Shown: positions 1,471 through 21,318 of the stretch, piece by piece | Layout of the letters: each line of letters begins with the position of its first letter | How positions within the stretch are numbered: the stretch's first letter is position 1 | Source of the DNA: a virus | Lineage: Duplodnaviria; Heunggongvirae; Uroviricota; Caudoviricetes | Virus record (IMG/VR): IMGVR_UViG_3300037067_004861 | Length of the DNA stretch: 21,318 nucleotides | Strand: one strand, 5' to 3' | Position numbers and translations under genes: made by a program | The notes under the pieces: generated by a model | Databases searched by the model: none | Told to the model about the DNA's origin: nothing | Seen by the model: only the letters and a program-made list of their open reading frames with translations

Positions 1471-2544
1471 TTAGCCACGAGTGACGGTAGCCTCGACTAC
1501 GTTACACTTACCTTCACAAGAAACCGTACTGGCACTGAGATCGTGGGCAAGACTCTCCCAACGGAACTCAGGCAGTACAATGATTTCACTATTAGCACCG
1601 CCGCAAGCGGGATCATAATGAATTTCAAGATCAACGCAATATGGTTCACATGGATCGGTTGAAGTGGTTTCCCACAAAGCAGCCTCACCACGTTGCTTTA
1701 GTGCGTCCTCGATAGTGGGGATACCACTGGCTGTCACACCGGTAATCCATTCCCAGACGAACTCAAAACTAACAGCCATTGGTTCATCAACACCATCGCG
1801 GATAGTCCCACCGTTCACCGTACCAATACGACCACGGTTAGGAATATACTCCCGCGTCTTGGCTTCGGTATACGTTAGATTACCTTCACCAATTTTAATA
1901 TCAAGTCGGCGACCCGTAAACGTCACGGCTCCACCAGCCGCTACTGCGGCAGCCAAACCAGCAGTCAAGACGATAGCAGTTGTTGTACCATCAACCACAC
2001 CCGGTGTAGTCAGTGTGAGGGTGGGGGTAGTGCCGTTTAATGTACCTTTATCAAAAGTAAATACAGTAGCGGATATTGGTGTTGCCGCTAGATCATCCTG
2101 GAAAGTGATAGTAATATCACCAGGAATAGCAACTAGGATGTCGCCATTACCAATACCGTCTAACGCTTCCAATTCCAATTGAATTAGGCTAGCCGCGGCA
2201 TCATAAGAAATACTATTCGTGGTCTGACCAGCATAGGTAAGTGTGTACGAGCCAGATGCCGAACTATCTAGATCAAGAGTGAAAACAGCGTTGGCTCCAC
2301 CTGTAGTTGTCCGTGACTCAACCACGTATTCCGTGTCCGTTGAGTCGTTGGCAAAATGAACGGTAGCACCAACAGGTACGTTCTCACTGCACGCGGTTAG
2401 GGCAACCGAGGTTTCACCAAGGGGCTCTAGAGCTGTGTTAGTAACACCCGTGGCCGTCCAACCATCCCGGATATACAGATCGGCTAATTTAAGATCAATA
2501 GGGGCAAAACAAACAAATTCCTTAACACCTTTTAGAAATTCCAT
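1471..2544 (-). CDS. Major tail (tube) protein with inserted surface domains, 357 aa
   Basis: Likely start is ATG 2544 (GGAGA SD), not 2595. Beta-rich core LDIKIGEGNLTYTE...EPMAVSFEFVWE...YCVDLEIHY...SCEGKCNV; position between tail terminator and chaperone. Confidence 0.75.
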   Translation of the reverse strand: MEFLKGVKEFVCFAPIDLKLADLYIRDGWTATGVTNTALEPLGETSVALTACSENVPVGATVHFANDSTDTEYVVESRTTTGGANAVFTLDLDSSASGSYTLTYAGQTTNSISYDAAASLIQLELEALDGIGNGDILVAIPGDITITFQDDLAATPISATVFTFDKGTLNGTTPTLTLTTPGVVDGTTTAIVLTAGLAAAVAAGGAVTFTGRRLDIKIGEGNLTYTEAKTREYIPNRGRIGTVNGGTIRDGVDEPMAVSFEFVWEWITGVTASGIPTIEDALKQRGEAALWETTSTDPCEPYCVDLEIHYDPACGGANSEIIVLPEFRWESLAHDLSASTVSCEGKCNVVEATVTRG

Positions 2545-2560
2545 GGCTTCTCCATTTAAT

Positions 2561-3010
2561 TTACTCTGACAAGAACATACGAAAAGACGCCTCAACTAAC
2601 CCCTGTATTAGCGTCGAACCACCAACTAAACCTAGATTATGACATCTTATATCTTTATTGAGCGTCAATGTACCTATAATTGTTTCATCATCTCCAGCAC
2701 CATCGCCATACTTCTTAACACAAATATTCTGCATCGCCTCAAGGATTATTCCTTTAATATCCTCGCCACGTTGCAATTCTGATTGAGTAATATGTTTTAC
2801 CCAAATGAGACTAACACTTGCTTCCAAAATATATTCGTGTCTCTGCAGTTGACGTTGGTGTGGCCCCTCTATTCTTAATTCCACCCATTCAGTATTTTGG
2901 GTTACTCGATTCATCCCCTCAGAATAAAAGGCAATACTATTTGCAATCATAGCATCACTAAAGTGCTTAGCTATGGAAGCATAGGTCCATCTAGCCCAAT
3001 TCTTATTCAT
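2561..3010 (-). CDS. Putative tail terminator / tail completion protein
   Basis: 149 aa immediately upstream of the major tail protein; alpha/beta pattern (WARWTYASIAKHF...WVELRIEGP). Assignment mainly by synteny. Confidence 0.55.
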   Translation of the reverse strand: MNKNWARWTYASIAKHFSDAMIANSIAFYSEGMNRVTQNTEWVELRIEGPHQRQLQRHEYILEASVSLIWVKHITQSELQRGEDIKGIILEAMQNICVKKYGDGAGDDETIIGTLTLNKDIRCHNLGLVGGSTLIQGLVEASFRMFLSE

Positions 3011-3018
3011 ATTGTAAC

Positions 3019-3495
3019 CTATTCTGTTACTGTTGGATTGATTGTAATATCAGTATCAACAGTAGCCTCTGTTATAGTATGGATAGGAGCCCCAGGGACA
3101 TGCTCTCCAATAATAATAAAAGCGGTTTTGTAGTCATACTCAATAATTTTAGTGATATTCCAACGGGCACCTTCGTAAACGAAGTAACCCGTTGTGGTGA
3201 TAATAAAATCACCAAGGTCACGCTGATCTACTAACAGTGTTTTGATATTATTGTCATAGACCGCCCCAAATTGGTATTGGGTACTTATGGCCTTATTATT
3301 AAATTTCCTCGCTACCTCTTCTGGAAGAACCACGGCTAGTGGCACTATTATGGACTCTATTCTTGACGCTTGGTGTCCTGTTTCATAATCTACTGTGGAA
3401 GTTAGAACTTCATAAAAAGTGATTGGATATCCATAATCACGTTTGAAGACATAGATTACATTAGAAATGAAACGACTTGTTTTGCGATCAATCAT
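3019..3495 (-). CDS. Putative head closure / head-tail joining protein
   Basis: 158 aa, beta-rich (YFVYEGARWNITKI); TAATG-coupled to the upstream gene; neck-cluster position. Confidence 0.5.
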   Translation of the reverse strand: MIDRKTSRFISNVIYVFKRDYGYPITFYEVLTSTVDYETGHQASRIESIIVPLAVVLPEEVARKFNNKAISTQYQFGAVYDNNIKTLLVDQRDLGDFIITTTGYFVYEGARWNITKIIEYDYKTAFIIIGEHVPGAPIHTITEATVDTDITINPTVTE

Positions 3496-3755
3496 TAGAG
3501 TACCCTTAAAATGACCCCTGTTATAAGGGTGCAGATAACAGTTATCAAACCACCACCCATCATAATTGAAACAGTTTTCAAAATACTGTAGGATCGTTCC
3601 AGCCTATCTATCCTGATTAAGAATCCTGGTTTCTCTTTAGTGTTGGTGGGATCACCTACCAATGCTTCAAACATAATATCAATTTTATCTTTGATACTCA
3701 AGAATTCTTTTGTTAATTGGTCCAAACCTGGACAATCTTGCGGCTTACATTCCAT
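3495..3755 (-). CDS. Small membrane-anchored protein (helical region plus one C-terminal TM helix)
   Basis: ATG 3755 with GGGGA SD 6 nt upstream; 86 aa; C-terminal hydrophobic stretch VSIMMGGGLITVICTLITGVIL. Function unknown. Confidence 0.6.
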   Translation of the reverse strand: MECKPQDCPGLDQLTKEFLSIKDKIDIMFEALVGDPTNTKEKPGFLIRIDRLERSYSILKTVSIMMGGGLITVICTLITGVILRVL

Positions 3756-3767
3756 ATTCAATCCCCA

Positions 3768-3797
3768 AGGGATGGGTGGTATAGGCCACCCATCCCT
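3768..3797. terminator. Perfect 12-bp hairpin downstream of the major capsid gene
   Basis: AGGGATGGGTGG-TATAGG-CCACCCATCCCT. No U-tract on the coding strand, so it may be an mRNA stabiliser or weak terminator. Confidence 0.5.
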
Positions 3798-3815
3798 GTT
3801 TCCATTGGAAGACGA

Positions 3816-5270
3816 CTAACCGATTAGAACGACGCCCTGGTCCTCATCGAGAACCTTAACGCCACAGAGCATGTCCAACGTGATTAAGTGACCCTGCTTC
3901 TCACCATCGTAAGTGATAGTGACACGCATTGAAAGGTCATTATAATTCGAAACACCAGCGATAGCGCCAGCACCTGCCCGAGGTAGAGCTAGTGGCCGAA
4001 CAACTAGAGCAAGGGCTTCTCGGAGGAAAGCAAAGTTATACTCACCACCAGGACCCAGACCCACGGTATAGTTATTGGCAATAGCCGCCTCAAGAGGACG
4101 ATCTAGGGTAATAGCATAGGCCGTTGTCATATCCACAACGTCAATAATGCAGTACTCATCCGTTAGTGGTGTGGCAGCATTATTGAATGAGCAAAGCTGA
4201 CCAATCGTGGGTACACCAGTTCCATCAACCCAAATCTCTTTGGTATAACCAGCCGGATAGGCGGAAGGACCACCGGCAGCAGTATGCTCAGCGAGAGCCA
4301 CTGAGGCCATCGGAACGAGATAAACATCACTATTATTAGCTAGAGCTACACGAAGAGGACGGTTAAGAGTCAATGTATCAGTGTTGATAGCAGTAATACG
4401 GTAAGGCATACGATCTTGTGATGTAGTGCCATCAACAAAATAGATATACTGGCCAACTACATAACCAGCACCCGCTGCACCATCACTTACAACTGTGGTG
4501 GCACCAGCAGCAGCCGCAGCAATATCATCGGTATCCACTATGCCAGTGTCGGTGACACTTGGGACATTTTGACACTTGAAGCACTGGAATCCTAACTTCT
4601 CTCCGAGAGAAGCCTTACGGAGAGCAGTACCATTATCACCCACTTGCTCGGCACTGATGAATAGGTCTAACCGTAAAGCATCGGTCTCACTGCTTGGTGA
4701 TAGAATAAGAACACGTCCACCCTCATCAGGGCAGTTATTCTCATCCATCGCCTTACGTGCATCTAGAATCAAGTTCTTAGCATTATGTGCATCACCCGTG
4801 GTAGCATTCATCTGACCAAGATCACCAACACAGTTATTTAGGTATTGGTAAACCTGACCAAGAAGAATTTTGTCAACATGCCGAGCCATCGAAACCGCAG
4901 CCGGCTTTAGATATCCCTTGATAAGATCAGCTAAGGAACGAGATTCCTCACCATCACGAATCATAAATGAAGTATGAACGTGTTGATTCAATACAACTGG
5001 CACCTTCGTGGCTGTTGCATTCTGAACCGTCACATCGTCATTCACACCCTTACGCTTGGCAGTAAAAATACCAGGCTTTCGAGTATTAACCGTATCACCA
5101 AAAGAAGCAATCTCAGAACTGAAATCTGTATAGACTAGCCGCCCAATAACCATGTTCTCTTCGAGAAGCATTAGAGTATGGGCAGCCCAAACCTCTGGAA
5201 CCCAAGCACGATCGTCAGTATCAAAATCATTATCAAAAGCAACGAAACGCAGATAATTTAAATTTTCCAC
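3816..5270 (-). CDS. Major capsid protein, P22 coat-like HK97 fold, with duplicated insertion domain
   Basis: GTG 5270 lies 7 nt after AGGAG (track start 5276). Motifs VPEVWAA...FGDTVNTRKP...VPVVLNQH...LKPAAVSMARHVDKILL and C-terminal MRVTITYD...ITLDMLCGVKVL; follows the scaffold gene. Confidence 0.85.
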   Translation of the reverse strand: MENLNYLRFVAFDNDFDTDDRAWVPEVWAAHTLMLLEENMVIGRLVYTDFSSEIASFGDTVNTRKPGIFTAKRKGVNDDVTVQNATATKVPVVLNQHVHTSFMIRDGEESRSLADLIKGYLKPAAVSMARHVDKILLGQVYQYLNNCVGDLGQMNATTGDAHNAKNLILDARKAMDENNCPDEGGRVLILSPSSETDALRLDLFISAEQVGDNGTALRKASLGEKLGFQCFKCQNVPSVTDTGIVDTDDIAAAAAGATTVVSDGAAGAGYVVGQYIYFVDGTTSQDRMPYRITAINTDTLTLNRPLRVALANNSDVYLVPMASVALAEHTAAGGPSAYPAGYTKEIWVDGTGVPTIGQLCSFNNAATPLTDEYCIIDVVDMTTAYAITLDRPLEAAIANNYTVGLGPGGEYNFAFLREALALVVRPLALPRAGAGAIAGVSNYNDLSMRVTITYDGEKQGHLITLDMLCGVKVLDEDQGVVLIG

Positions 5271-5334
5271 AACCACTCTCCTGATTTTCTTTTAGGAAAT
5301 AATACAAGCACTCCCGGAAATTGACACCCGTATT

Positions 5335-6150
5335 TTAGCCCAGAAGTTCCGGTCTCTCTTTGACTAACTGACGGTAGCGTTTTGGATCAGTCTTAGCAAT
5401 CTCAATCAAATTAATCTTACCAGTCTTCGTTGAGCCCGAATTACCCATACCACCAACTTTACTATTCTTGAACAAATTAGCATATTTATCTAAATCCTTC
5501 ATACGCTTAACGGCATCTTCGACCGTTAGGTCTAGTTCAATTGGCTTACCTTCCTTATTTACGTCGGGTAGTTTTACCCGTGGTACCGACATGCCACTCG
5601 GCTTACCATCGTCTCCCAGTACGTCTACCATCTTCAACTGCTTAGTGCGTAAGACGGCTAGAATCTGGTCTGGGTCCACAGCCCCATGCTGTACGGACGC
5701 CCGCGTGATGGCCGACTCAATAACAAGGTTATCGTGTCGATTACGCCACTGTTCCTTTTCGGACTCTAGTTGAGAGATTATTGTAGCGTGCTCTTTGGCC
5801 GTCTTATCAGCCGCTTGCTTAGCTAACTCCTCAGCGGACATAGTTTGCTGACGTAGTTCATCAATCTGCTTCTCAAGCGCCTCTTTCTCATCGGCCGTTA
5901 ATTTAGCTACCTTTTGGTATTCCTCAAGTTGCCCTACTATACGCTTCTGAGCCTCTTGATTCTTACGCCGATCACGAGCCATTAACTCATTAACTTGATC
6001 TTGCGTGAAGGTTTTTGTTTCCTCAGTCTTTGTCTCAGTTTTTGACTCCGGATTGGTATTCGGGTCTTTACCTTCCTCACCTTCAAAGCACATAATTGAT
6101 TTTAAAATCAGCGAATCGAAATTAGAATTAAGCATTGTCTTTTTCTCCAT
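5335..6150 (-). CDS. Capsid scaffolding protein
   Basis: 271 aa, highly charged coiled-coil (TFTQDQVNELMARDRRK), basic Gly-rich C-terminus, directly upstream of the capsid gene. ATG 6135 (GGAG SD, 9 nt) is an alternative start. Confidence 0.75.
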   Translation of the reverse strand: MEKKTMLNSNFDSLILKSIMCFEGEEGKDPNTNPESKTETKTEETKTFTQDQVNELMARDRRKNQEAQKRIVGQLEEYQKVAKLTADEKEALEKQIDELRQQTMSAEELAKQAADKTAKEHATIISQLESEKEQWRNRHDNLVIESAITRASVQHGAVDPDQILAVLRTKQLKMVDVLGDDGKPSGMSVPRVKLPDVNKEGKPIELDLTVEDAVKRMKDLDKYANLFKNSKVGGMGNSGSTKTGKINLIEIAKTDPKRYRQLVKERPELLG

Positions 6151-7832: not shown

Positions 7833-10800
7833 CTATAATAAAATACTTCTGAATATCTTTCCATTGGGCGCACTGCCGGCTAGGACAATACCTTTCTCAA
7901 GGTAGCATATATTTGGGATTGTGGTTTCACTAGCTTGTTGACCAAGATCAGTCCATGTAGCACCATAATCTATTGATTTTAAAATCTTACCACTATTACC
8001 ACTTCCACTTACAACAACACCATTCCCAAGATAGGCAAAATTATAAACCATAGCAGTACTATATTGTTGACCTAGATCAGTCCAGGTGGCACCATAATCT
8101 ATAGACCTTACGATATGTCCATGACCAGATGTTCCACCTACAACTATACCATTTCCAAGATAAGTTAATCCTATAACTAAAGTTTCTCCAGCTACAATAG
8201 TTCCAAGATCAGTCCATGTGGCACCATAATCTGTGGACCTTAAAATTTTACAGTTGGGATATGCTCCTGCAACAACTATACCATTTCCTAGATATGCAAA
8301 TGAATATATTCTAGCTTGGCTGTATTGTTGCCCAAGATCGGTCCAAGTGGCACCATAATTCGTGGAACGAAGTATTTTTCCATTAACCACAGTACCAGCT
8401 ACTACAATACCATTACCAACATTTCCTAGACTTATAATGAACATTTCGCTGTATTGTTGACCTAAATCAGTCCAAGTGGCACCATAGTTTGTTGATCTTA
8501 TTATATGTCCATGTGATGCTGTTCCACCTAGCACTATACCATTTCCCAAATAAGCCGAGCTATATACACCTTCTTCACCAACTACGATGGTTCCTAGATC
8601 AGTCCAAGTAGCCCCATAATTGGTAGAGCGAAATATTTTTCCATGTGTAGATGTTCCTGCAATAACTATACCATTACCGATATAACATATCGTTCTTATA
8701 GTTGTTTCACTAGCTTGTTGACCAAGATCAGTCCAAGTAGTACCCAGGGATTCTTTTAATGGAATAATATAACCAAAATAATCTTGGCCAGTATCATCAG
8801 GAATTCCGATAGCTCCTGTTGCACCTGTGGCGCCCGTGGCCCCTGTCGGTCCTCCTGGAGGGCCACTAGGGCCTGTTGGCCCCGTTGGTCCTGTAGGTCC
8901 ACCACTTGGGCCTGTTGGTCCTATATCACCGCCTTCGGAGAAAAGTTCCCAGTAGGCAGAAGGTATTGTTGGTATCTCACCAAGAGCCGAAGTGACACAA
9001 ATCCAAGTGGAATCACCTTTACCAGAAACACCACTTGAATAAGTAACTAGGTCATTAAGTTCATATAAGGTTTCACTATCCCACTCACCTTGCCACTGGC
9101 ATCCTGCTGGTCCCGTTGCTCCTGTTGGACCACCACTTGGACCCGTTGCCCCAGTTGGACCAGTTGGTCCTATTACTCCATCATCACCCTTGGCACCTGT
9201 TGCCCCCGTTGGCCCTATATCACCACCCTCTACTAATAAATCCCAATAAGGGTTTGCTAGTAAATCAGGCACATTGCCTGTGGTAGTGGCTTTACAAATC
9301 CAAGCAGAGTCGCCATAAATAGTACCAAGATAGTATTTTACTACGTCATCGACGTAATAGGTAACACCATCATCATACTCACCTTTCCATTGGAGTCCCT
9401 TAGCTCCCGTAGCCCCAGTGGCTCCTGCACCAGTTGCACCAGTTGGACCCGTGGCCCCTGCTGGTCCGGTGGCTCCAGTAGCACCTGCTCCTGTAGCTCC
9501 TGTAGCTCCTGTTGGTCCCGTGGCTCCTGCTGGTCCCGTGGCTCCTGTTGGTCCTGTAGCTCCTGCTGGACCACTAGGTCCGCTAGGTCCGCTAGGTCCG
9601 CTAGGTCCACTAGGTCCGCTAGGTCCGCTAGGTCCGCTAGGTCCAATTAATCCATCGGTTATAATTTTTAGTATTGGTGACGATGGACCGGGTGAGCAAT
9701 AGATTATATTATCAATTGCTACTCCACGTTCCCAATTCCCAACACCAACCGAAGCCGTCGTACTTATTGAGTCATCTAAAGGATTGATTCTAAGAACATA
9801 ATCATATAATGCGGGTACACCGAAAATATAATTACCGACGTAGTTTGCTCCACTCCATTTCCCACCGCCTACTAAGGTACCGAAGGTAGTGATACTGTCG
9901 TCAGTGGTATCAATTTTAAGAACTGTTTCACTACTATAAGGTATGCCATAGATATAATCACCAACGGCTACCGCGGATTTATATTTAGTACCGCCAGCAT
10001 CAAAGGTTCCAAAAGTAGATGTTGTGTCATTAGTTGTATTGATTTTAAGGATAGATGTTTCATTGTAAGGCGTGGCATAGATATAATTACCAACTTTATC
10101 CGCTCCCCACCACTTGCCATTGCCAACTAATGAGCCAAAAGTAGTAATGGTGTCAGTAGTGGTATCAATTTTTAGAACTGTTTCACTACTATAAGGTATG
10201 GCATAGATATTATTGCCAACCAATACTGCCGTAAACCACCCATAATTTCCTGCTAATGAACCAAAGGTAGTGATAGTATCGGTAGCAGTATCAATTTTTA
10301 GAATCGCGGTACTCGCTACCGGAATACAATAAATGCACCCATTGGGCGCTAATATTGCATCCCCATAAGACTCATAGGTAAGCGATCCTAATTCTGTAAT
10401 TTCATTGGTGGCCGTGTTTAATTTTAAGATATATGTTGTGCCCGAACGTGGAATAAAATAAACATACAGCCCCACGGCTACCGTACCATAGTAATGACCA
10501 TCTTCGCCATATAGTAAAGTAGTTGAATACCCACGATCAACTTCTGGCCCTGTGGCCCCAGTGGCTCCAGTAGGTCCCGTGGCTCCACTAGGTCCAGTAG
10601 CTCCAGTAGGACCATCGACTCCATTAGCTCCACTAGGTCCTGTAGCTCCACTGGGCCCCGTAGCCCCATCTATTCCAGGTGCCCCACTAGGTCCTGTAGC
10701 ACCATCGACTCCATCGACTCCATTGGCCCCACTAGGTCCACTAGGCCCACTAGGTCCACTAGGTCCACTAGGTCCACTAGGACCTGTTGGCCCTGTTGGC

Positions 10801-11021
10801 CCTATGCTTCCACTACCACCCGTTTCCCAAGTAGGTAAGGCACCTATACCATGTGAAGTTAAGACCTGACCCTCTTCCCCTTGACTTAATTCAAGATAAT
10901 CACGGGAATAAGGGTTATCAGCCTTAACTATTAAAGAGCCATATTCACCAATCTCTATCATAGATGGGCGAATAGCCAATTCTATTTGTACCCAAGTAAT
11001 GAAATCAGTGAATTCTGACAT
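7833..11021 (-). CDS. Collagen-like fibre/adhesin with two beta-propellers and two CBM5/12-like modules (1062 aa)
   Basis: Four G-X-Y runs (GPT/GAT/GPS); about 7 repeats of ~42 aa (VGNYIYxIPYxSxxVLKIDT) at ~9660-10500; two WxGxY/W...W modules at ~8925-9400; 7 repeats with Asp-box/BNR motifs (RSTxYGATW) at ~7836-8745; AGGA SD. Confidence 0.8.
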   Translation of the reverse strand: MSEFTDFITWVQIELAIRPSMIEIGEYGSLIVKADNPYSRDYLELSQGEEGQVLTSHGIGALPTWETGGSGSIGPTGPTGPSGPSGPSGPSGPSGPSGANGVDGVDGATGPSGAPGIDGATGPSGATGPSGANGVDGPTGATGPSGATGPTGATGATGPEVDRGYSTTLLYGEDGHYYGTVAVGLYVYFIPRSGTTYILKLNTATNEITELGSLTYESYGDAILAPNGCIYCIPVASTAILKIDTATDTITTFGSLAGNYGWFTAVLVGNNIYAIPYSSETVLKIDTTTDTITTFGSLVGNGKWWGADKVGNYIYATPYNETSILKINTTNDTTSTFGTFDAGGTKYKSAVAVGDYIYGIPYSSETVLKIDTTDDSITTFGTLVGGGKWSGANYVGNYIFGVPALYDYVLRINPLDDSISTTASVGVGNWERGVAIDNIIYCSPGPSSPILKIITDGLIGPSGPSGPSGPSGPSGPSGPSGPSGPAGATGPTGATGPAGATGPTGATGATGAGATGATGPAGATGPTGATGAGATGATGAKGLQWKGEYDDGVTYYVDDVVKYYLGTIYGDSAWICKATTTGNVPDLLANPYWDLLVEGGDIGPTGATGAKGDDGVIGPTGPTGATGPSGGPTGATGPAGCQWQGEWDSETLYELNDLVTYSSGVSGKGDSTWICVTSALGEIPTIPSAYWELFSEGGDIGPTGPSGGPTGPTGPTGPSGPPGGPTGATGATGATGAIGIPDDTGQDYFGYIIPLKESLGTTWTDLGQQASETTIRTICYIGNGIVIAGTSTHGKIFRSTNYGATWTDLGTIVVGEEGVYSSAYLGNGIVLGGTASHGHIIRSTNYGATWTDLGQQYSEMFIISLGNVGNGIVVAGTVVNGKILRSTNYGATWTDLGQQYSQARIYSFAYLGNGIVVAGAYPNCKILRSTDYGATWTDLGTIVAGETLVIGLTYLGNGIVVGGTSGHGHIVRSIDYGATWTDLGQQYSTAMVYNFAYLGNGVVVSGSGNSGKILKSIDYGATWTDLGQQASETTIPNICYLEKGIVLAGSAPNGKIFRSILL
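7836..8745 (-). repeat. Seven ~129-132-bp intragenic repeats encoding BNR propeller blades
   Basis: WTDLG...GNGIV...G.I.RS..YGAT repeated; 32 identical nt at 7924-7955 and 8704-8735. Confidence 0.85.
9571..9644. repeat. 9-bp tandem repeat CCRCTAGGT x8, encoding (GPS)8
   Basis: Read directly from the sequence; a second array of about 6 units lies at 10729-10782. Confidence 0.9.
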
Positions 11022-11038
11022 ATTTATTTCCTACAATG

Positions 11039-12751
11039 TCAAATGGTTTCTTCAAGAGTTAGATAAGCTGTACCAGAGGCGTTCGCCGCAACGGCATTTA
11101 GATCACACCAATAAATATAATTACCGGTGTCACTTAGATTACCACCAGCATCAACTATTGTGAAACGATAAGCAATATCCAATTTATTAGCTTGGTAGGT
11201 AAGTAAATGGCCACTATTATCATAACACACTAATTTTTCAGGATTAGTGGGTAAACACGAGATTCCCACTAAGTCGGAGATCGGTTCCAAAGGCCAATCT
11301 GGTGTATGATCGAAAACCACACTTATTGGTTCAAAACCACCAATCACGCAGTTTCCAGTGGTAGTAGCATTGTATCCAGATTGATTTGTCGCCGGAACGA
11401 ATTGCATCCAAGCAGCCGTACCGCGGGCATCATCGTTTTCTATCAAAAGTGAACGAGTCCAGATTTTCTTTTGGCCACTAGGAGTAGCCACGAAACCGGC
11501 ACCTTGCCACGTTCCACCAACAACAATATTGAGATTAGGTGCTATGGCTAGATTTTGATTGGATGTCACAGTGATAATATGCTCATTTTCAGAACGCAAT
11601 CTACTATCTGCTTGTGTTACTGTTAGTAGTGGTGCGATATCTGCAACTTCGATAGTTTTATCAAAAACAGAAATATAGCCGTTAGCGGCCCTGGTTGCTG
11701 TTATCCTAAAGTTGATATTATTATCATTATAATCCCCAGGATTAACGCAAGTAATGTCTTTAATTTTCTCATAGGTTGTGCCATTCGCTATGACGAAATC
11801 ACCGTGTGGTGAGGAATAGACAATAGTATCAAAAGCAGCTACTGTTGTGTCCTGGACTCCGGCCTCAATACCTTTAAAAGCAAGCGCTCCTGGATTGCTT
11901 TCATTCGTAAAGCCATTATCAATAAATGTTGGCCTTGTATCGTTGCATTTAATTGTGTGGTAGCCATCGTCCGATCCATCCACATTAGTAAGGCGAACTG
12001 GGCCATAGGCCCCAGCCGCATTACGTGCTTGAACACTAGCCGCCAAGGCTTGTGTTGTGTAGCCAGTAGTATCCACCGTCCCTGTTACCACAAAGGTATT
12101 CGTGGAGGGAAAGGTTTGGATAGAAGCAACACAAGCCCCGAAATCAGCGATACGTACCGCTACACAGGGAACATCCGTGGTCCCTGTGAGTTGGAACGTA
12201 TCACCTTCTTTTACTTCCGTTTGACTTCCAGGATATCCACCCAGGAAATGCAGTGTCAAAAGAGTAGGACCAGCCACAATCTCTAAGGTAGTAGTGTAAC
12301 TGGTTCCTAAAGTCTCATTTGGAAGTACCATACTAACAGTTAAATCAACCGCATCTTGCTGCAATGTGTAATTCACTGACTTGGAGTAATGTCCAGTATC
12401 GGTTGAGGCATCCAGTTCAAAAACTGTATCCTCTATCTTACACATTGGAAAGGTAGAATGAATCGTGATAATAATATCACGAGAACTAGTCACACAACTA
12501 GCTAAAACAGTTTGACCAGCAACGTCAATAAATACTTTACTCGAAACCTCTTCATTATCTTCATCTTGTGGAACAATATCCGTAATGAAGATACTGCCAC
12601 TATTAGCAGCCTGGTTTAAAATCTCTTTTTGGACTTTCCCCATTTCCTCTACAACACGTTCATAATCCCAGCCATCTGGACTGGCAAATTTGCCCATGTC
12701 CAGACGACTCTTGGATTGACCATACCAGAGACTTGTCAACCAGTTACTCAT
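11039..12751 (-). CDS. Hypothetical virion accessory protein, probably tandem Ig-like beta-sandwiches (570 aa)
   Basis: Thr/Val/Gly-rich beta pattern; lies in the head module; N-terminal ~45 aa resemble those of 12754..13485. Confidence 0.6.
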   Translation of the reverse strand: MSNWLTSLWYGQSKSRLDMGKFASPDGWDYERVVEEMGKVQKEILNQAANSGSIFITDIVPQDEDNEEVSSKVFIDVAGQTVLASCVTSSRDIIITIHSTFPMCKIEDTVFELDASTDTGHYSKSVNYTLQQDAVDLTVSMVLPNETLGTSYTTTLEIVAGPTLLTLHFLGGYPGSQTEVKEGDTFQLTGTTDVPCVAVRIADFGACVASIQTFPSTNTFVVTGTVDTTGYTTQALAASVQARNAAGAYGPVRLTNVDGSDDGYHTIKCNDTRPTFIDNGFTNESNPGALAFKGIEAGVQDTTVAAFDTIVYSSPHGDFVIANGTTYEKIKDITCVNPGDYNDNNINFRITATRAANGYISVFDKTIEVADIAPLLTVTQADSRLRSENEHIITVTSNQNLAIAPNLNIVVGGTWQGAGFVATPSGQKKIWTRSLLIENDDARGTAAWMQFVPATNQSGYNATTTGNCVIGGFEPISVVFDHTPDWPLEPISDLVGISCLPTNPEKLVCYDNSGHLLTYQANKLDIAYRFTIVDAGGNLSDTGNYIYWCDLNAVAANASGTAYLTLEETI

Positions 12752-15227: not shown

Positions 15228-16885
15228 AGGAACTCCTTAATATCAGTATTAGTTGTAATACTAGCAGCCAATGGTAATGCGACTTCAGAATAATTGTAGG
15301 CGTGAGCAAAGTGGTCGGGACCAATATTCTCGTAATAGCCTACAGGATTACCATTCTTATCTTCTTTATATCTACGCACTGGACTCTTTAACTGACTTTG
15401 GAACTCAGCAGAAATATCCTTAGGGATAATAACCGTACCATTCCTAAAGCGATTTAAAGACGTATCCAACCAAGTAGTCCTATCAATCAGGACGCGGTGG
15501 GCATTAGAGTCATCAGCTATGAATCTACCAGAGATACTATGATTATAAAAGCATAATCTAACACGACCATAATAGGCCATAGCAAATTCAAAAGCTAATC
15601 GCGTTTCCGGTTGTGCATCAATGACGCACATCATCACCTGCCACCGCTTCATCAACTCTCCCAGTTCACTGAACTCCCTAGCTTTTCCAGCCGTGATAAC
15701 TTCACAGGTCGCATTCATATTTAAATCAGGGCCGAAACCAGGAAGGGACCAAGCACTAACGACATAGTGAAGCCACGTCCCAGCGTCAACCCCCATTGTA
15801 ATCACTCGACGCGGTGCTGTATTATCAAAGATATCGTTGCAGCAACGATTGCTTTTCAGTTGGGCATTGATAAGTTCAACATCAGTTATCTGGCTACCAG
15901 GCGCCACATACGCCACCCCTAACTTGGAGTTATAAAGTTCTTGGGCTTCCAATGGATCAATTAATGAGGATAGATAAGAATAAGCTAGACTCGCCGGAGA
16001 GGCTTTACTAGCAGAAGAATATAACTGTGGAATATGAAAACCACGTATATCCACGTCCCTAGGACCAGTAGGTTCCCAGAAACCATTTTTCAAGAAATTA
16101 GGTTTCTCTTCATGCTTGAGAACACCATGGCACTCCTTACAAACCAAATAACTATCTCTGATTTTAGGATCAAGACGATCCTCAGCCGTAATGACCAAAC
16201 ATTCCGGAAACACTAACTCAGTTATTCTGCTACAATGCGGACATTTAAAAAGAAAATGTTCCTTGGTGCTTTGGTCGTAGATTTTTGAGATACCCTTATT
16301 TGGTAGTGTTGGAGTAGATAACTTAAAAATCTGCCACCGAAGTTGGCCCGCGGCACGTTCCTCAGCAAGGATCACATTCTTTTCATCCATTTCGTTCAGT
16401 TCATCAAAAACAATAAAGCCAACCGGAATGGATTTCAAACCGGAACGGCTGTTGCTACCACGGATGTAGAGGTTAGCACTGCCAGCTCTTTTGTGGCCGA
16501 CGTTCTTAACATCACTGAATAACTCTGAGAGATGTGGACTTAGTTCTAGGGCTGCATCGAAACGAGCCGAACTGAAATCCGTAGCATCTGGAGTCTTCGA
16601 CGGTAAGACGTAAAGGCAATCGCGTCGTTCTACGTCGATATTATAAAAGGTGATGTTTAAAACTGTCTCAGTGAAACCCATCTGAGCAGCTTTTGATATT
16701 ACTATCTGTGGATGCTTAGCATCATGGACTTCCCGCAACCATGGGTGATGGTCAAAAGACCAAGGCCCAGGAAACGGCGAACCCATCATGCGGTAACGTA
16801 CAGCCCATTTTGAGGGCGACGTTACCGCACGACGTTTCAGACCATTTGCAATCACTGTTGCAAAATGTTGCTGCAAATTACCCAT
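15224..16885 (-). CDS. terL: Terminase large subunit, lambda gpA family
   Basis: Walker A-like ISKAAQMGFTE, Walker B FIVFDELNEM, KLSTPT motif, Zn-binding CPHC...CKEC, nuclease motifs ITMGVDAG, VIDAQP and DHFAHA. Start probably ATG 16885 (track uses TTG 16909). Confidence 0.9.
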   Translation of the reverse strand: MGNLQQHFATVIANGLKRRAVTSPSKWAVRYRMMGSPFPGPWSFDHHPWLREVHDAKHPQIVISKAAQMGFTETVLNITFYNIDVERRDCLYVLPSKTPDATDFSSARFDAALELSPHLSELFSDVKNVGHKRAGSANLYIRGSNSRSGLKSIPVGFIVFDELNEMDEKNVILAEERAAGQLRWQIFKLSTPTLPNKGISKIYDQSTKEHFLFKCPHCSRITELVFPECLVITAEDRLDPKIRDSYLVCKECHGVLKHEEKPNFLKNGFWEPTGPRDVDIRGFHIPQLYSSASKASPASLAYSYLSSLIDPLEAQELYNSKLGVAYVAPGSQITDVELINAQLKSNRCCNDIFDNTAPRRVITMGVDAGTWLHYVVSAWSLPGFGPDLNMNATCEVITAGKAREFSELGELMKRWQVMMCVIDAQPETRLAFEFAMAYYGRVRLCFYNHSISGRFIADDSNAHRVLIDRTTWLDTSLNRFRNGTVIIPKDISAEFQSQLKSPVRRYKEDKNGNPVGYYENIGPDHFAHAYNYSEVALPLAASITTNTDIKEFL

Positions 16886-16961
16886 GATAATTAGGAACCA
16901 CCGCAACAATGTGCAACCCTAGGAAGCATAAAACGCTTAGAGACTAAAGAATTAAGCATAA

Positions 16962-17237
16962 CTAACTCTCCATGTTATCCGCTTTTTCTATAAAAATAAG
17001 AATTAATAAAGAGAAAACAGACGCGAATGCCACTAGAGCAAAACTATTGATTATAAAATCAAAAAGTGTAAATGAAATTAAAGTTGCTATTAGAAATGCC
17101 ACCCAATGACTTAAACAATAGGGGCATTTCAATACTCTCCAACCCAGGTAAGAGCGTAATTTTCTAAAAATCACGCTCTTACTTATAGTTATGGAGATTG
17201 TAGAGATAGCGGCTGAAAGCAATATAAAATTAACCAT
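16962..17237 (-). CDS. DUF1360-like small membrane protein with CPYC motif
   Basis: 91 aa, about 3 hydrophobic helices; LKCPYCLSHWVA matches the L.CPxCxSxW pattern of this family. Confidence 0.6.
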   Translation of the reverse strand: MVNFILLSAAISTISITISKSVIFRKLRSYLGWRVLKCPYCLSHWVAFLIATLISFTLFDFIINSFALVAFASVFSLLILIFIEKADNMES

Positions 17238-17257
17238 AATGTTTTTAACTTAAAACT

Positions 17258-17584
17258 TTAATTTCTTAATGATAGGTCCACAACCAATGGTTGATCCACG
17301 CCCCTACCCGTTTTAGGAATGACATTACGGTAGAAGGTTTCTGTTCTGAGTCCAACATATCTAACTACCTTACCATCAATCCTAATAATGAGGGTTGGAA
17401 ATACACGCTCTCGACTATCCATTATGATTTTAACGTCATAACCCTCGGCTATTAGTTTATTGATAACAGCCTTAGCCGGAACACAGAAAGGGCAATGTGG
17501 GGAGACATGCAATTCCGCTGTCTCTGCTCTAGCACTAACGCTAAACGATATAAGAGCAAGAGTTGCAAGAAAAACTTTTACCAT
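17258..17584 (-). CDS. Secreted thioredoxin/glutaredoxin-fold protein
   Basis: Sec-type signal peptide ending A-R-A; HCPFC active-site motif; cis-Pro-like VFPTLII motif. Confidence 0.7.
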   Translation of the reverse strand: MVKVFLATLALISFSVSARAETAELHVSPHCPFCVPAKAVINKLIAEGYDVKIIMDSRERVFPTLIIRIDGKVVRYVGLRTETFYRNVIPKTGRGVDQPLVVDLSLRN

Positions 17585-18564
17585 AGGTGGTATTCCTTAT
17601 CCGGTTTAACAAAGCCTTTGTAATCTGCGAACGCAAAACTATCTGAAAAAGTAGAGCCGTCTCTGTTTCTCCAGAGAACATATTTGTCTACGTTAGCCGC
17701 GTCAATCCATACCGAACCCACTGGCTGCCCATTCGGTAATGGGCCCTTTCCGAAATTAGGGCCATGGCTGTTAATGAACAAGGCTCCAGGACGCTTACCG
17801 TCTTGGACTCCCGCAATCACCATACTGTGGTACCACGTTCCGGAAGGTTGAACAAAGCCGTCACTATCCCTGTTTGCACCCTCTAATCCCATAGTTGAGC
17901 AGAAAATCACAGGGTGGCCAGCAGACACGGAGTCCCGAATCTCGTTCCAACTACTTACCAGGGCGCAGGTTTTAACAGGTTGCTTTTTCGCTTCCTCTAA
18001 GAGGGCGGGGGTAAGGCCATTGCGGTCCCAGTAATCCAATTCTTTTTTGTTGTAAACGGTGAGGTCATAAGGAGGATATGGCTTCCGAAGAAGATTACCA
18101 TAAGCCATTAGGTAATCAACTGCCCATTTCCCACACATCCCCTCTCCGCCACCCATTTCATCCAATTCTTTTTTAGCACTAGGCATGTGCCGTCCACCGG
18201 CATAAATCGCTATCGTGCTGCTAGGAATAGTATTACCGACGGCCCTGTTTTTAAGATTTTGTACCGCGTCTAATATGTCTACTCCAGCTCCGGAGGCATG
18301 GGAAACGCAATCACCGGCTACTTGGAACTGTGGTTCCCAGAGTCGGTGGTTCACTTTTTCCCAGGCCTTCCAGAGGGCTACTGATTTGTCTTCTCCATAA
18401 GAACGTAAAGAACTGATTGTGTAGAGGGGTGGCAGTGTTGTTGGGAGATGCGAGGGCATCCACCCACACCTTTTAACCTTAGTATTAGGAAGAACTACCC
18501 TACCAAGAGCAGTTCCACTAACAAATAAGGAGGCCGCCAATCCCAAGAAACTGCGACGATCCAT
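17578..18564 (-). CDS. Papain-like (C1) cysteine peptidase with twin-arginine signal peptide, 328 aa
   Basis: ATG 18564, 2 nt after the previous stop, gives MDRRSFLGLAASLFVSGTALG. Catalytic motifs QVAGDCVSHA (Gln/Cys), WYHSMVIAG (His) and FINSHG (Asn). Confidence 0.8.
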   Translation of the reverse strand: MDRRSFLGLAASLFVSGTALGRVVLPNTKVKRCGWMPSHLPTTLPPLYTISSLRSYGEDKSVALWKAWEKVNHRLWEPQFQVAGDCVSHASGAGVDILDAVQNLKNRAVGNTIPSSTIAIYAGGRHMPSAKKELDEMGGGEGMCGKWAVDYLMAYGNLLRKPYPPYDLTVYNKKELDYWDRNGLTPALLEEAKKQPVKTCALVSSWNEIRDSVSAGHPVIFCSTMGLEGANRDSDGFVQPSGTWYHSMVIAGVQDGKRPGALFINSHGPNFGKGPLPNGQPVGSVWIDAANVDKYVLWRNRDGSTFSDSFAFADYKGFVKPDKEYHLW

Positions 18565-18566
18565 GG

Positions 18567-19274
18567 CTATGCCTTTTCTAAGGTATCCGCAATTTTCAGC
18601 CAAAGAGCATAATAATCGTCAATAGTAGCGTTAGTCATGTTCTGTTTGCAATGATCCAGGACGCTTTGAAGAAAAGGCTTCCAAACTTCCAAGGATTCAT
18701 TGAGAATAACTTTATTGCTTATCTGAGTGCGTGTGAATAGTTCGTCGATGGTAGCGGGCTTACTTTCAACCGCGAATCTGAAAGAGCGGGCTAATTGTTT
18801 GGCTACAACTGGATCAAAGTCTTTGGGTAGATTGTCAGTGATATTAAAATCAGTGTTCTTGTTTCCAGGACCAACGACTAAGCGCTTCACCACCAAATCG
18901 ACTTTACCACCTTTAGTCATAGCACAAATGAAAAGGTATTCACCTTCGGTGGTTGCACTAAAAACTAATTGTTTACCACCGTCAATGACGCGATAATTTT
19001 TAGTGTTCGGGAGGACATGCCAAACATAAGCATCGGCATCACTGACCCCGGCGTCAAAAATCACTAATTCCCCGACTGCCGCGGAAGTAGTGGATTTTAT
19101 TTGACCATCTAGTTCGGAAGATGGCGCAGCTAAGAAGGCAGAGATCACACCAACTAACAGTAGAATAAGGGGTGAGTTCTCTTTTACACTCTTCTTAGAA
19201 GGCATCTTCTTAGTAATAACCGTTTTAGAAGGCACTTCCTTAGAAGGCAACTTATTTAACAGAAGTGTCGGCAT
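18567..19274 (-). CDS. Membrane-anchored protein with PKD/Ig-like domain and helical C-terminus, 235 aa
   Basis: ATG 19274 with AAGGA SD; basic xPSKx-repeat N-terminus, hydrophobic segment LILLLVGVISAFLAA, then GELVIFDAGVSDADAYVWHV (PKD-like). Confidence 0.55.
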   Translation of the reverse strand: MPTLLLNKLPSKEVPSKTVITKKMPSKKSVKENSPLILLLVGVISAFLAAPSSELDGQIKSTTSAAVGELVIFDAGVSDADAYVWHVLPNTKNYRVIDGGKQLVFSATTEGEYLFICAMTKGGKVDLVVKRLVVGPGNKNTDFNITDNLPKDFDPVVAKQLARSFRFAVESKPATIDELFTRTQISNKVILNESLEVWKPFLQSVLDHCKQNMTNATIDDYYALWLKIADTLEKA

Positions 19275-19473
19275 CCGTTGTTCCTTCAGTACCAATAGGT
19301 AGGCTTGTTACCAAGCGTAATGCAATATTCACACCACTGATAACCATCCCCAAGAAAGCCACTAACGAAGCGTTTTGTGCAATAAGTTCGGACCCTTGGG
19401 CCGCAGTGAAAATCGTAATCCCCAGGGTTAGTAGGTTCACAATGACAGTCTTACTCTGATACCATTTCTTCAT
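19252..19473 (-). CDS. Putative holin (2 TM helices)
   Basis: AAGGAG 7 nt before ATG 19473; KKWYQSKTVIVN...VNIALRLVTSLPIG resembles a common small phage holin-like pattern. Confidence 0.6.
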   Translation of the reverse strand: MKKWYQSKTVIVNLLTLGITIFTAAQGSELIAQNASLVAFLGMVISGVNIALRLVTSLPIGTEGTTDADTSVK

Positions 19474-19515: not shown

Positions 19516-20049
19516 TTAGCCGATACTAACAGTATCTAATGCTTTTAAAATCTCATCACCAATTTTTTCTAATAGTTCTTCATCGTCGATGTATTTGCCA
19601 ATAATCTCAATAATCAACTGGGCGAACTGTAAAACCTTAGTTTTATCGAGTAGGTTTCCTAGTTTACTTTCAAGGCGTTGGCAAGAAGTTACTAGCTTCT
19701 CGCACTTCATAATTAAATCAGAGAGTGGTTGACTAATTGAAACCAGATCATAGTTATCAGTACATTTTTCAACTCGCTCCTCAATAAGCATCCGGAGGAT
19801 GGAGACTTCATCTTTCAATGAGAATAGACCGTCACTATTGCCGAGTTCCTCGGCCCTAGCTTTGAACTTAGTTAGTCTATAGTTTTTCATTGCTTTTTTC
19901 TCTGCCACTTGGCGAAGAAGACCCCCACCATGCGCAGAACACAAATTAGTACCATCCACTGCCTTGAGATGGCACTGGGTATGGCCTGAGATGGCCTGGC
20001 AACGGTGTGGATCGTCAGGAGCCACGAATTCTTTTGTGTAACCGTCCAT
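19516..20049 (-). CDS. Putative terminase small subunit with N-terminal C3H (HGG-type) Zn finger
   Basis: CQA...QC...LCSAHGG followed by a helical/coiled-coil region; first gene after the non-coding gap. Start uncertain (ATG 20049 or TTG 20073). Confidence 0.55.
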   Translation of the reverse strand: MDGYTKEFVAPDDPHRCQAISGHTQCHLKAVDGTNLCSAHGGGLLRQVAEKKAMKNYRLTKFKARAEELGNSDGLFSLKDEVSILRMLIEERVEKCTDNYDLVSISQPLSDLIMKCEKLVTSCQRLESKLGNLLDKTKVLQFAQLIIEIIGKYIDDEELLEKIGDEILKALDTVSIG

Positions 20050-20069
20050 ATGATAATAATATCCAGAGA

Positions 20070-20099
20070 TCAATTATTGACCAAGTTTGGTTTAGGCAT
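20070..20099 (-). other. Nine-codon upstream ORF (MPKPNLVNN) with strong SD
   Basis: AGGTGAGG-CACTAA-ATG; its TGA (20072-20070) overlaps TTG 20073, which opens the terS frame. Confidence 0.35.
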
Positions 20100-20217
20100 T
20101 TAGTGCCTCACCTACATATAGGACCGGGCCAATGAAAATGTTCAAGAAACCCTGAAAATTTCCAAAATTTCCGAAAGCCAAAAAGCGACAAACAATGTTC
20201 CCGTGTTTTCTAGGAAA

Positions 20218-20506
20218 GAGGTAAATAACCCACCCTACCACTACCATATGGGAAATAAATCTAGGATTCAACTAATCATTGCTTCATAGCTCTCTTGGGT
20301 AAATGATTTTAAAATCAAGAAATCAATAATTAGAAATCAATAATTAGGAATCAATAATTAGAAATCAAGGAAACCTCGGATTCGACTCTTTTCATAATAA
20401 TATCGTTTCAAAATAAAAGACACAAAATTTCAGGCATCCTAGGGCCGGAGCAGCATTCGATCCCCCAATCGGGGGAGGTGCCTTCAAGGAGGCAAATAAC
20501 CCTCCC
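20218..20506. repeat. Two 18-bp direct repeats GAGG(T/C)AAATAACCC(A/T)CCC at 20218-20235 and 20489-20506
   Basis: 16 of 18 positions identical; 271 bp apart. Confidence 0.7.
20304..20368. repeat. Perfect palindrome TGATTTTAAAATCA followed by 3.6 copies of G(A/G)AATCAATAATTA
   Basis: Palindrome at 20304-20317; units at 20319, 20333, 20347 and a partial unit at 20361. Confidence 0.9.
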
Positions 20507-20533
20507 CCGTTAGCGGGGAATTACTACAACTAC

Positions 20534-20563
20534 GATTACGATTACGATTATGATTACGATTAT
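20534..20563. repeat. (GATTAY)5 microsatellite
   Basis: GATTAC GATTAC GATTAT GATTAC GATTAT read directly. Confidence 0.9.
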
Positions 20564-20600
20564 GATATTACAATCATTACAACTATCAATGATTATAGTA

Positions 20601-20870
20601 TCAACGGGTCGGCGGCTTGTTGTTGATCCATCCTGTTTTGCCACGCAATCCATGGCAGTTAATGCAACGCTCACAATCCTTGCAATCCACGCAGGCAATG
20701 CAATGATCGCAATTGGTACAATCCACACAAGTATTGCAGTCCGTGCAATCATTGCAGGTTATGCAATTGTTGCAATTGGTACAATACTCACAATCATTGC
20801 AGCCAATGCAAACATCACAATTGCTGCAATGCACACAAACGCTACAATCTGCACAATTGTCGTTAGTCAT
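20601..20870 (-). CDS. Cysteine-rich (CxxC)n repeat microprotein 2, 89 aa
   Basis: TAAGAGG SD before ATG 20870 (the track start at 20957 is unlikely). Cys at every third residue from 6 to 72 (23 Cys), then HGLRGKTGWINNKP. Confidence 0.75.
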   Translation of the reverse strand: MTNDNCADCSVCVHCSNCDVCIGCNDCEYCTNCNNCITCNDCTDCNTCVDCTNCDHCIACVDCKDCERCINCHGLRGKTGWINNKPPTR

Positions 20871-20895
20871 AATCGTACCTCTTATGATTGTGATA

Positions 20896-21162
20896 CTATG
20901 ATCGTGGTTTGTTGTCTTTCCAACCCGTCTTGTCTTGCAATCCATAGCAATTCTCACAATCTATGCAATCCGTGCAATTGTGGCAATTGTCACAATATAT
21001 ACAATTCGTACAATTGCTGCAATCACCACAATATATACAATTCGTACAATGGCTGCAATTGTCACAGTCGGCACAATGATTGCAATTCTTGCATTCGTTG
21101 CAACCACTACTGGCTATGCAATAGCTGCATTCGTTATAATTCTGGCAATTGACGTTAGCCAT
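20896..21162 (-). CDS. Cysteine-rich (CxxC)n repeat microprotein 1, 88 aa
   Basis: TAAGAGG SD 7 nt before ATG; same register as its paralogue (21 Cys; positions 9 and 18 are TAT and AGT), then YGLQDKTGWKDNKP. Confidence 0.75.
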   Translation of the reverse strand: MANVNCQNYNECSYCIASSGCNECKNCNHCADCDNCSHCTNCIYCGDCSNCTNCIYCDNCHNCTDCIDCENCYGLQDKTGWKDNKPRS

Positions 21163-21177
21163 GCTCTTGCCTCTTAT

Positions 21178-21318
21178 GATTGTAGTATCCCTGATTGTAG
21201 TATCCCTGATTGTAGTATCCCTGATTGTAGTATCCCTGATTGTAGTATCCCTGATTGTAGTATCCCTGATTGTAGTATCCCTGATTGTAGTATCCCTGAT
21301 TGTAGTATCCCTGATTGT
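21178..21318. repeat. Perfect 15-bp tandem array (GATTGTAGTATCCCT) x at least 9.4, truncated by window end
   Basis: Identical units with no spacers. Confidence 0.95.

Follow-up and report, generated by a model that had tools for sequence, protein, structure and literature searches.

In phage 80alpha the capsid protein gp47 and the scaffold protein gp46 undergo Prp-dependent processing by a cut after Phe, and the motif concerned is also present on the major tail protein of phage phi13 (PMC5744158, PMC9405229). The extension of ribosomal protein L27 has the consensus MLxx(D/N)LQ(F/L)F↓A(S/H)KK, where the arrow marks the cut (PMC9405229). Here we describe an N-terminal leader that is common to the scaffolding, major capsid and probable tail tube proteins of an uncultured phage, and we compare it with this system. 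The DNA analysed, hereafter the window, is a stretch of 21,318 nucleotides that represents one end (bases 1-21299, reversed) of an 85,110-bp IMG/VR virus record (IMGVR_UViG_3300037067_004861), which is complete according to CheckV. To our knowledge, the L27/Prp pair has been reported only for the Firmicutes and a few allied phyla, and we know of only one system in which leader-directed trimming takes place outside the capsid, that of host Prp acting on the 80alpha-like phages of the Firmicutes.

We propose that the three proteins are made as precursors, each with an N-terminal leader of 12-17 residues and the consensus (F/L)LKx(V/L)S(F/Y)(V/T/I)(A/C)(F/Y), which would serve as a portable, lineage-specific recognition tag. 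The leader would most likely be cut in the cytoplasm, before or during assembly, at [FY]↓[D/E/A], and the predicted mature ends are DNDFD.. for the capsid protein, EGEEG.. for the scaffold and APIDLK.. for the tube protein. The most likely enzyme would be the phage's own stand-alone cysteine peptidase of 154 residues, which is predicted to have the fold of the C39 leader peptidases.

A leader shared by three virion proteins

The likely start codons of the three genes were judged by the Shine-Dalgarno spacing read off the DNA (Table 1). The scaffold leader ends with F22 (6087-6085) at the predicted junction ..LILKSIMCF↓EGEEG. The capsid leader ends with F14 (5237-5235) at ..LRFVAF↓DNDFD and, when read from the second of two GTG codons, has the sequence MENLNYLRFVAF. 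In the tube protein the leader is MEFLKGVKEFVCF, its final F is encoded at 2508-2506, and the predicted junction is ..KEFVCF↓APIDLK. An earlier note on this DNA had placed the motif at these three N-termini and at no other structural N-terminus. When checked against the open reading frames (ORFs), all three positions proved to be exact. To cover the remaining proteins, every ORF of the 85-kb genome was scanned with the last six leader residues. Scores of 29-35 were obtained at the three N-termini only; the next N-terminal match scored 21, and none of 19,813 internal positions reached 24. Because the genome-wide background is zero, the resemblance of the leaders is not due to chance and is limited in this genome to the three proteins, as the note had stated.

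Several other phage records were compared with the window's own 85-kb genome (G000), and these are referred to as G001, G043, G049, G053, G058 and G062. As in G000, only three N-termini match in G001. In G062 (complete, 84 kb) five proteins start with ..R.WYG↓, namely the capsid, scaffold and tube proteins, a 1353-aa tape measure and a 535-aa fibre-like protein, and the next N-terminal match is far below these five. Two further candidates were set aside. An ORF at 308-775 gives a loose 4-residue match, but its N-terminus is ordinary conserved sequence that does not co-vary with the leaders. A 165-aa protein of the tail module (genome 24877-25374; L034:3877-4374) starts with MGISNKLKPRGLFTLQHF↓DEKG, and the LFTLQHF within this start resembles the 80alpha Prp site (..LQHF↓A). 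This likeness is attributed to chance since it is not conserved in the orthologues, and the protein was rejected as the carrier of a Prp-type site.

A protein search returned 120 capsid homologues with 52-100% identity, of which 119 could be aligned at the junction, and all of these carry the tag. P1, the last residue of the leader, is F in 75 of them and Y in 44. P2 is A (47), C (44) or G (12) in 103 homologues, P3 is V, T or I in 114 of the 119 and is never Q, and P4 is F, Y, L or W. Further upstream, P5 is mostly S, and P8, P9 and P10 are K, L and F, in that order; on the other side of the junction P2' is N in all 119. Conservation is sharpest at P4-P1 and at P1'-P3', and the commonest leader length is 12-13 residues. 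The window's tube leader (MEFLK...FVCF) is closer to this capsid-family consensus than is the window's own capsid leader. In related viral contigs, the scaffold and tube genes that adjoin the capsid gene encode the same kind of leader. Inspection of the homologue N-termini, a check of the kind suggested in the earlier note, thereby finds the leader in homologues of all three proteins.

The leaders also vary together. When the N-terminal regions of the capsid and scaffold proteins of one genome were compared, the best shared 7-mer had a mean score of 24.0, against 15.7 +/- 0.5 for shuffled pairings, and the observed value was reached in 0 of 500 shuffles (64 dereplicated loci). Capsid/scaffold pairs from single genomes include KFFKPVY/KFFKPVY, NPVLACY/NPVLACY, FITVH/FILVH and TFC/TYC. 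In G043 the leader ends with ..FLTVH↓ on the capsid and tube proteins alike, and in G058 four proteins, the capsid, scaffold, tube and tape measure, have leaders that end with ..WFG↓ or ..WYG↓. The junction residues thus differ among related phages (F, Y, H, C, G) and agree within one genome. Such a change in lock-step points to one common partner that varies by lineage. As a whole, these results show that the leader exists, that it is conserved and modular, that it co-varies within genomes and that it is restricted to virion proteins.

The predicted cut site

Relatives that do not possess the leader provide information about the junction. Distant tube orthologues without it start with M-AQIELR, M-AVIDLK or M-AQIDIK/M-AQIDLK, in which the Met aligns with P1 and the remainder with APIDLK. 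In five cultured outgroup phages of the same capsid family (27-33% identity), the capsid protein starts with a Met exactly at the predicted cut: M-ANTF in Streptomyces phage Hiyaa, M-ANNF in Gordonia phage Morgana, M-ANKF in Corynebacterium phage PSonyx, M-ANTL in Dinoroseobacter phage R26L and M-AVTSF in Clostridium phage phiCP34O. The residues that follow this Met align with those from the predicted P1' onward (D/A-N-D/T-F). The scaffold-position proteins of these five phages have no leader and start directly in a low-complexity region. A comparable situation is found within a single genome, G062, where a leaderless paralogue (19898-21310) adjoins the tagged 535-aa fibre-like protein and starts with MMAVDIQV.. 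at the junction. A protein that starts with Met-Ala would lose its Met to Met aminopeptidase. Since the untagged relatives start at the junction, cleavage would give each tagged protein the N-terminus of its untagged relatives. In the capsid and tube genes there is no start codon at the junction; in the scaffold gene an in-frame ATG is present two codons before it and is not conserved in homologues. In our estimate, the leader is probably removed from the precursors.

It is unlikely, in our judgment, that the leader is instead kept on the proteins, as a common tag for assembly, for binding a chaperone or against aggregation. There are three points in favor of this possibility. First, the leader of the 80alpha scaffold is needed for assembly and its cutting is dispensable (PMC5744158). 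Second, a non-protease binding partner common to the proteins would also give rise to co-variation and modularity. Third, residues 1-14 are disordered in the AlphaFold2 model of the tube protein, with a predicted local distance difference test score (pLDDT) of 27. Against a leader that is kept stand the leaderless orthologues, which start at the junction with their Met at P1 and which, once the Met is lost, would have the same mature end as that left by cleavage. The peaks of conservation on both sides of the junction also form the pattern of a cleavage site, and an enzyme with a leader-peptidase fold is a core gene of the clade.

The candidate peptidase and its competitors

The enzyme in question is encoded about 34 kb beyond the window. 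Its AlphaFold2 model has a pLDDT of 96, and VIA-align superimposes approximately 120 residues on the peptidase domains of PCAT1, LahT150 and ComA with Z scores of 12.5-11.8 and a root-mean-square deviation of 2.8 Å; the LahT150 structure includes its leader peptide. The next matches are PeiR (Z 11.8) and staphopain (Z 10.8), which rank just behind these C39 domains. Foldseek agrees with this result, and the structural neighbors in the ESM Atlas are Peptidase_C39 clusters. In an alignment of 31 family members H115 is invariant, C12 (in QPNSWSC) and D128 are at least 90% conserved, and a GHDGSE block and D128-P129 are nearly invariant. Gln6, which corresponds to the oxyanion hole, is present in the peptidase of the window's phage and is replaced in several members. 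By sequence, the 154-aa protein matches no Pfam family at E<=0.05, including PF03412 and PF13529, and a scan of the 31 members at E<=1 gave a single PF03412 match, with a value of 0.2. A profile search of the PDB sequences with this family found no peptidase. The family comprises 1,895 representatives at 50% identity clustering, and the best 150 of these are mostly stand-alone proteins of about 150 aa (range about 140-270 aa).

The distribution of the gene is consistent with the proposed role. It is the only protease-like gene among the approximately 27 genes common to G000 and four complete or near-complete relatives. When records were chosen by capsid, the peptidase was found in both complete records and in 9 of the 11 that are at least 58 kb long, and when complete records were chosen by peptidase, this capsid family was found in 10 of 11. 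The same profile (E<=1) detected the peptidase in none of the five leaderless cultured outgroup phages. Throughout the clade the gene lies in the replication/middle module, with the order DNA polymerase, VRR-NUC-position gene, NYN, peptidase, nucleotidase-like gene and ligase, so that synthesis of the peptidase would precede that of the late proteins. A divergent sigma-70-family gene comes immediately after the peptidase gene in at least 20 of 40 related loci, and the stop and start codons of the two often overlap (for example L064:2896-4217 and L073:2977-4151). In G000 three pentapeptide-repeat genes are inserted between the two, and the sigma gene (58998-59546; L035:17998-18546; Sigma70_r2, 27 bits) is located 3.7 kb downstream. 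We infer that the peptidase is possibly made together with the factor that switches on the late proteins.

A number of observations weigh against this assignment. Both the cleavage and the pairing of this enzyme with these substrates are deduced from circumstantial evidence. The leader and the peptidase may be two traits of one clade that were gained once, and their co-occurrence would then count as roughly one event. The divergence of the leader is correlated with that of the peptidase in a partial Mantel test (r 0.50, p 2e-4; 0.47 when the capsid and scaffold bodies are controlled for), but DNA polymerase and the sigma factor, used as controls, give the same correlations, so that this signal is not specific to the peptidase and reflects genome history rather than specific co-evolution. 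Further, G053 (43 kb, with terminal repeats) has a divergent homologue of the peptidase (L194:10884-11363, minus strand), which adjoins small membrane and lipoprotein genes, together with another capsid type and no detectable shared leader, suggesting that the family may have more than one role. The predicted junction differs from Gly-Gly, the cleavage site of C39 enzymes; no Pfam C39 model matches the family; and the gene lies outside the head module, the usual site of prohead proteases. Finally, the ATG two codons before the scaffold junction could be an alternative start. A role for the 154-aa protein as an endolysin was also considered and appears unlikely, as the gene never adjoins holin-like genes in the clade and is always in the replication module, while the Z score of PeiR keeps the possibility in view. 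Balancing these considerations, we put the chance that the 154-aa peptidase removes the leader at about even. The more inclusive proposal is that, in a large clade of uncultured siphophages of about 80-150 kb with P22-type capsids, a stand-alone, hitherto undescribed morphogenetic protease with the C39 fold, usually encoded beside a phage sigma factor, trims a fast-evolving leader from three to five unrelated structural proteins and so constitutes a phage-owned counterpart of Prp that covers head and tail. This we advance tentatively, as a little less than an even bet.

If the leader is cut, it may be cut by the host, either by a Prp-like enzyme that matures L27 or by another cytoplasmic host peptidase, in which case the phage peptidase would serve a different purpose, for instance in host takeover or in control of the sigma factor. 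Precedent for this is provided by host Prp, which cuts the 80alpha capsid and scaffold after Phe, and the major tail protein of phi13 carries the motif as well (PMC5744158). The residue at P1 is either Phe or Tyr, the tube protein shares the F↓A junction with L27, and a location beside the sigma factor fits a regulatory role as well. In spite of these points we consider a host protease quite unlikely. The leader does not have the L27 consensus (PMC9405229), P2 being small and P3 beta-branched. The junction varies among close relatives through F, Y, H, C and G, with the substrates of one genome changing together, and the 41-63% range of G+C content across the clade fits poorly with a conserved host L27/Prp pair. 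The earlier note had drawn the analogy with Prp and 80alpha, had suggested a host or phage enzyme of the Prp type and had recognized no prohead protease. The last of these observations was confirmed, as the phage genome has no match at E<=1 to the four canonical families S78, S77, S49 and ClpP (PF04586, PF03420, PF01343, PF00574). A Prp-type enzyme encoded by the phage is not supported, since the complete 85-kb genome contains no PF04327 match at E<=1, in a search that gave matches in control genomes, and since the leader is unlike the L27 motif. The analogy is therefore retained in part: it holds for a removable-looking modular leader on three proteins in a phage with no canonical prohead protease, and lacks support for the enzyme.

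The earlier note also mentioned, as a less likely enzyme, a C1 peptidase that appeared to be exported. This protein is encoded between terS and terL among genes for membrane and exported proteins (neighbors at 16962-19295) and carries a twin-arginine translocation (Tat) signal. It has a papain-type active-site pattern, with GDC near the nucleophile and a later His and Asn, it gives a weak Peptidase_C39_2 match, and Tat substrates fold in the cytoplasm, where it might act before export. Nonetheless, we find it very improbable that this is the maturation enzyme. Homologues were detected in no more than 3 of the 12 relatives with a completeness of 90% or above, and in 3 of 21 fragments. The head module was read in ten of these twelve relatives, and all ten have the capsid and scaffold leaders, as do G062 and every other related head locus that was read. 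Given its presence in only 3 of the 12 relatives, and in keeping with its membrane/exported-protein cassette, a role in lysis or at the envelope is likelier than one in maturation, and the suggestion was rejected. Least credible of all is the notion that there is no real feature, with true starts downstream or a chance resemblance; the ATG near the scaffold junction might be cited in its support, but the leaders are conserved at the protein level in more than 100 homologues with plausible ribosome-binding sites upstream, the capsid and tube genes offer no start at the junction, and nothing else in the genome attains the scores of the three N-termini.

Genomic setting and comparison with known systems

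Table 1. Positions of the tagged proteins, their leaders and the two peptidases (window coordinates unless marked otherwise).
Feature	Coordinates	Strand	Remarks
Scaffolding protein gene	5335-6150	-	Pfam Phage_scaffold; PHROG 206, head scaffolding protein
Scaffold leader	6085-6150, or 6085-6137	-	22 aa from ATG 6150, or 17 aa from ATG 6135
Major capsid protein gene, P22 coat family	3816-5276	-	PF11651, 8.8e-28; PHROG 283, 5.5e-52
Capsid leader	5235-5270	-	12 aa from GTG 5270; 14 aa from GTG 5276
Probable major tail (tube) protein gene	1471-2544 (ORF 1471-2595)	-	gene order; PHROG 10909, major tail protein, 3e-05
Tube leader	2506-2544	-	13 aa from ATG 2544
Tat-signal papain-like (C1/C39_2-like) peptidase gene	17578-18564	-	twin-arginine signal; weak Peptidase_C39_2 match
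154-aa cytoplasmic cysteine peptidase gene	genome 54861-55325 (L035:13861-14325)		no signal peptide
Five tagged proteins of G062	L202:13308-13829, 16162-17556, 17583-18533, 8001-12062, 1378-2985 (tube, capsid, scaffold, tape measure, fibre-like)	-	

The main genes of the window are all on the minus strand. In order of transcription, a terS-like gene is followed by a five-gene membrane/export cassette that includes the Tat-signal peptidase, and then by terL, the portal gene and two unknown genes. Next are the genes for a 1062-aa collagen/BNR-repeat fibre, a glycosyltransferase and the head-tail adaptor Ad1, and after these the scaffold gene, the gene for the P22-type major capsid protein and three small connector-position genes. 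The probable major tail protein gene, two chaperone-position genes and the start of the gene for a 1290-aa tape measure come last. The fibre protein (7833-11021, minus strand) contains long collagen-like G-x-x tracts and two blocks of 'STNYGATWTDLG' repeats (BNR/sialidase-like), and the glycosyltransferase gene that follows it, within the head module, is of the GT-B type.

The tube gene thus lies after the head-tail connector genes and before the chaperone-position and tape measure genes. The tail tube label is derived mainly from this gene order, because the core of the AlphaFold2 model is poor and the PHROG match is weak. The model is of low confidence (pLDDT 64, core 30-60), only its inserted domain matched Bxb1 proteins, and PHROG scans of short tube orthologues were uninformative. 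The inserted domain (residues ~65-165) has a sequence-profile match to the decorative domain of mycobacteriophage Bxb1 (PDB 9d93, 9d9w), which that phage displays on its capsid, its tail tube and the cage at its tail tip. The capsid protein (3816-5270) likewise has an inserted domain, at residues ~250-320. It seems, from the profile match of the insert in the tube protein, that the same surface module is displayed on head and tail.

Among 50,697 phage records none matches the tube protein or the 154-aa peptidase, and matches to the capsid are at most 33% identical. The samples that contain these phages include landfill, sediment and digester material. Four metagenome-assembled genome (MAG) contigs with this capsid are assigned to Saccharibacteria, Rhodoferax, Methanomassiliicoccales and Dehalococcoidales; as these represent four unrelated phyla, such host assignments are unreliable and reflect binning noise. 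Two records classed as proviruses have resolvase-like genes at their ends and no clear host genes. In G049, which has terminal repeats and is rated complete, the capsid gene (L206:5390-6769) contains one in-frame TAG, and TGA readthrough adds approximately 70% to the total of long ORFs, compared with 23-41% in two relatives. This pattern could be due to an alternative genetic code or to sequencing errors.

In full-text searches of the literature, neither a C39-type phage maturation protease nor this leader was found to have been described. If the proposal is correct, it would define a new class of morphogenetic protease and provide a function for a widespread phage "hypothetical protein". It would imply that the tagging of self-assembling virion proteins at their N-termini before assembly arose more than once. 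It would also offer many natural enzyme/leader pairs for studies of the co-evolution of protease specificity, and would allow structural models of these phages to be corrected at the predicted mature N-termini.

Three known systems may be compared with the one proposed here. The prohead proteases (HK97 gp4/S78, T4 gp21/S77 and the lambda C/S49-ClpP type) also remove N-terminal parts of capsid and scaffold proteins. They differ in being serine enzymes whose genes lie in the head module and which are packaged into the prohead, and they could not reach a tail tube or tape measure protein. The second comparison is with the C39 peptidases of bacteriocin and quorum-peptide exporters (PCAT1, ComA PEP and LahT150; PDB 8vp5, 3k8u, 6mpz), with which the candidate shares its predicted fold (Z about 12), a nucleophilic Cys at the start of a helix and a downstream His and Asp. 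By sequence, however, it falls outside PF03412 and PF13529, and it is not fused to an ABC transporter. The proposed junction, [AC][FY]↓[DEA], or YG↓ and FG↓ in some lineages, is not Gly-Gly, and the proposed substrates are large structural proteins rather than exported peptides. C39 peptidases remove short N-terminal leaders and recognize their substrates mainly through the leader.

The closest resemblance is to Prp and 80alpha. In both cases a leader, here of 12-17 residues, is common to non-homologous, abundant virion proteins, and the junction, here a predicted one, follows an aromatic residue; the scaffold is a separate protein, and canonical prohead proteases are lacking; a cysteine protease that is small and cytoplasmic would act outside the capsid, as proposed here for the 154-aa enzyme; and a tail protein is among those that carry the tag. 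The extension to the tail tube, which the earlier note had put forward, is borne out insofar as the tube protein is tagged, and is not new in itself because the phi13 major tail protein carries the Prp motif. The differences are that no Prp gene is present, that the leader is unlike that of L27, that the motif varies strongly between related phages, and that the tag extends to the tape measure and a fibre-like protein in some relatives. In addition, the candidate is phage-encoded with a predicted papain/C39 fold (clan CA), whereas the fold of Prp is that of clan CR (MEROPS C108). In comparison with 80alpha, the tag is a different one, changes rapidly from lineage to lineage and has spread to the tape measure and a fibre, and the candidate enzyme differs as well. 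These phages would therefore appear to follow the same logic as 80alpha by means of a different tag and probably of a different enzyme family, one that has no Pfam entry and no characterized member and is encoded by the phage itself.

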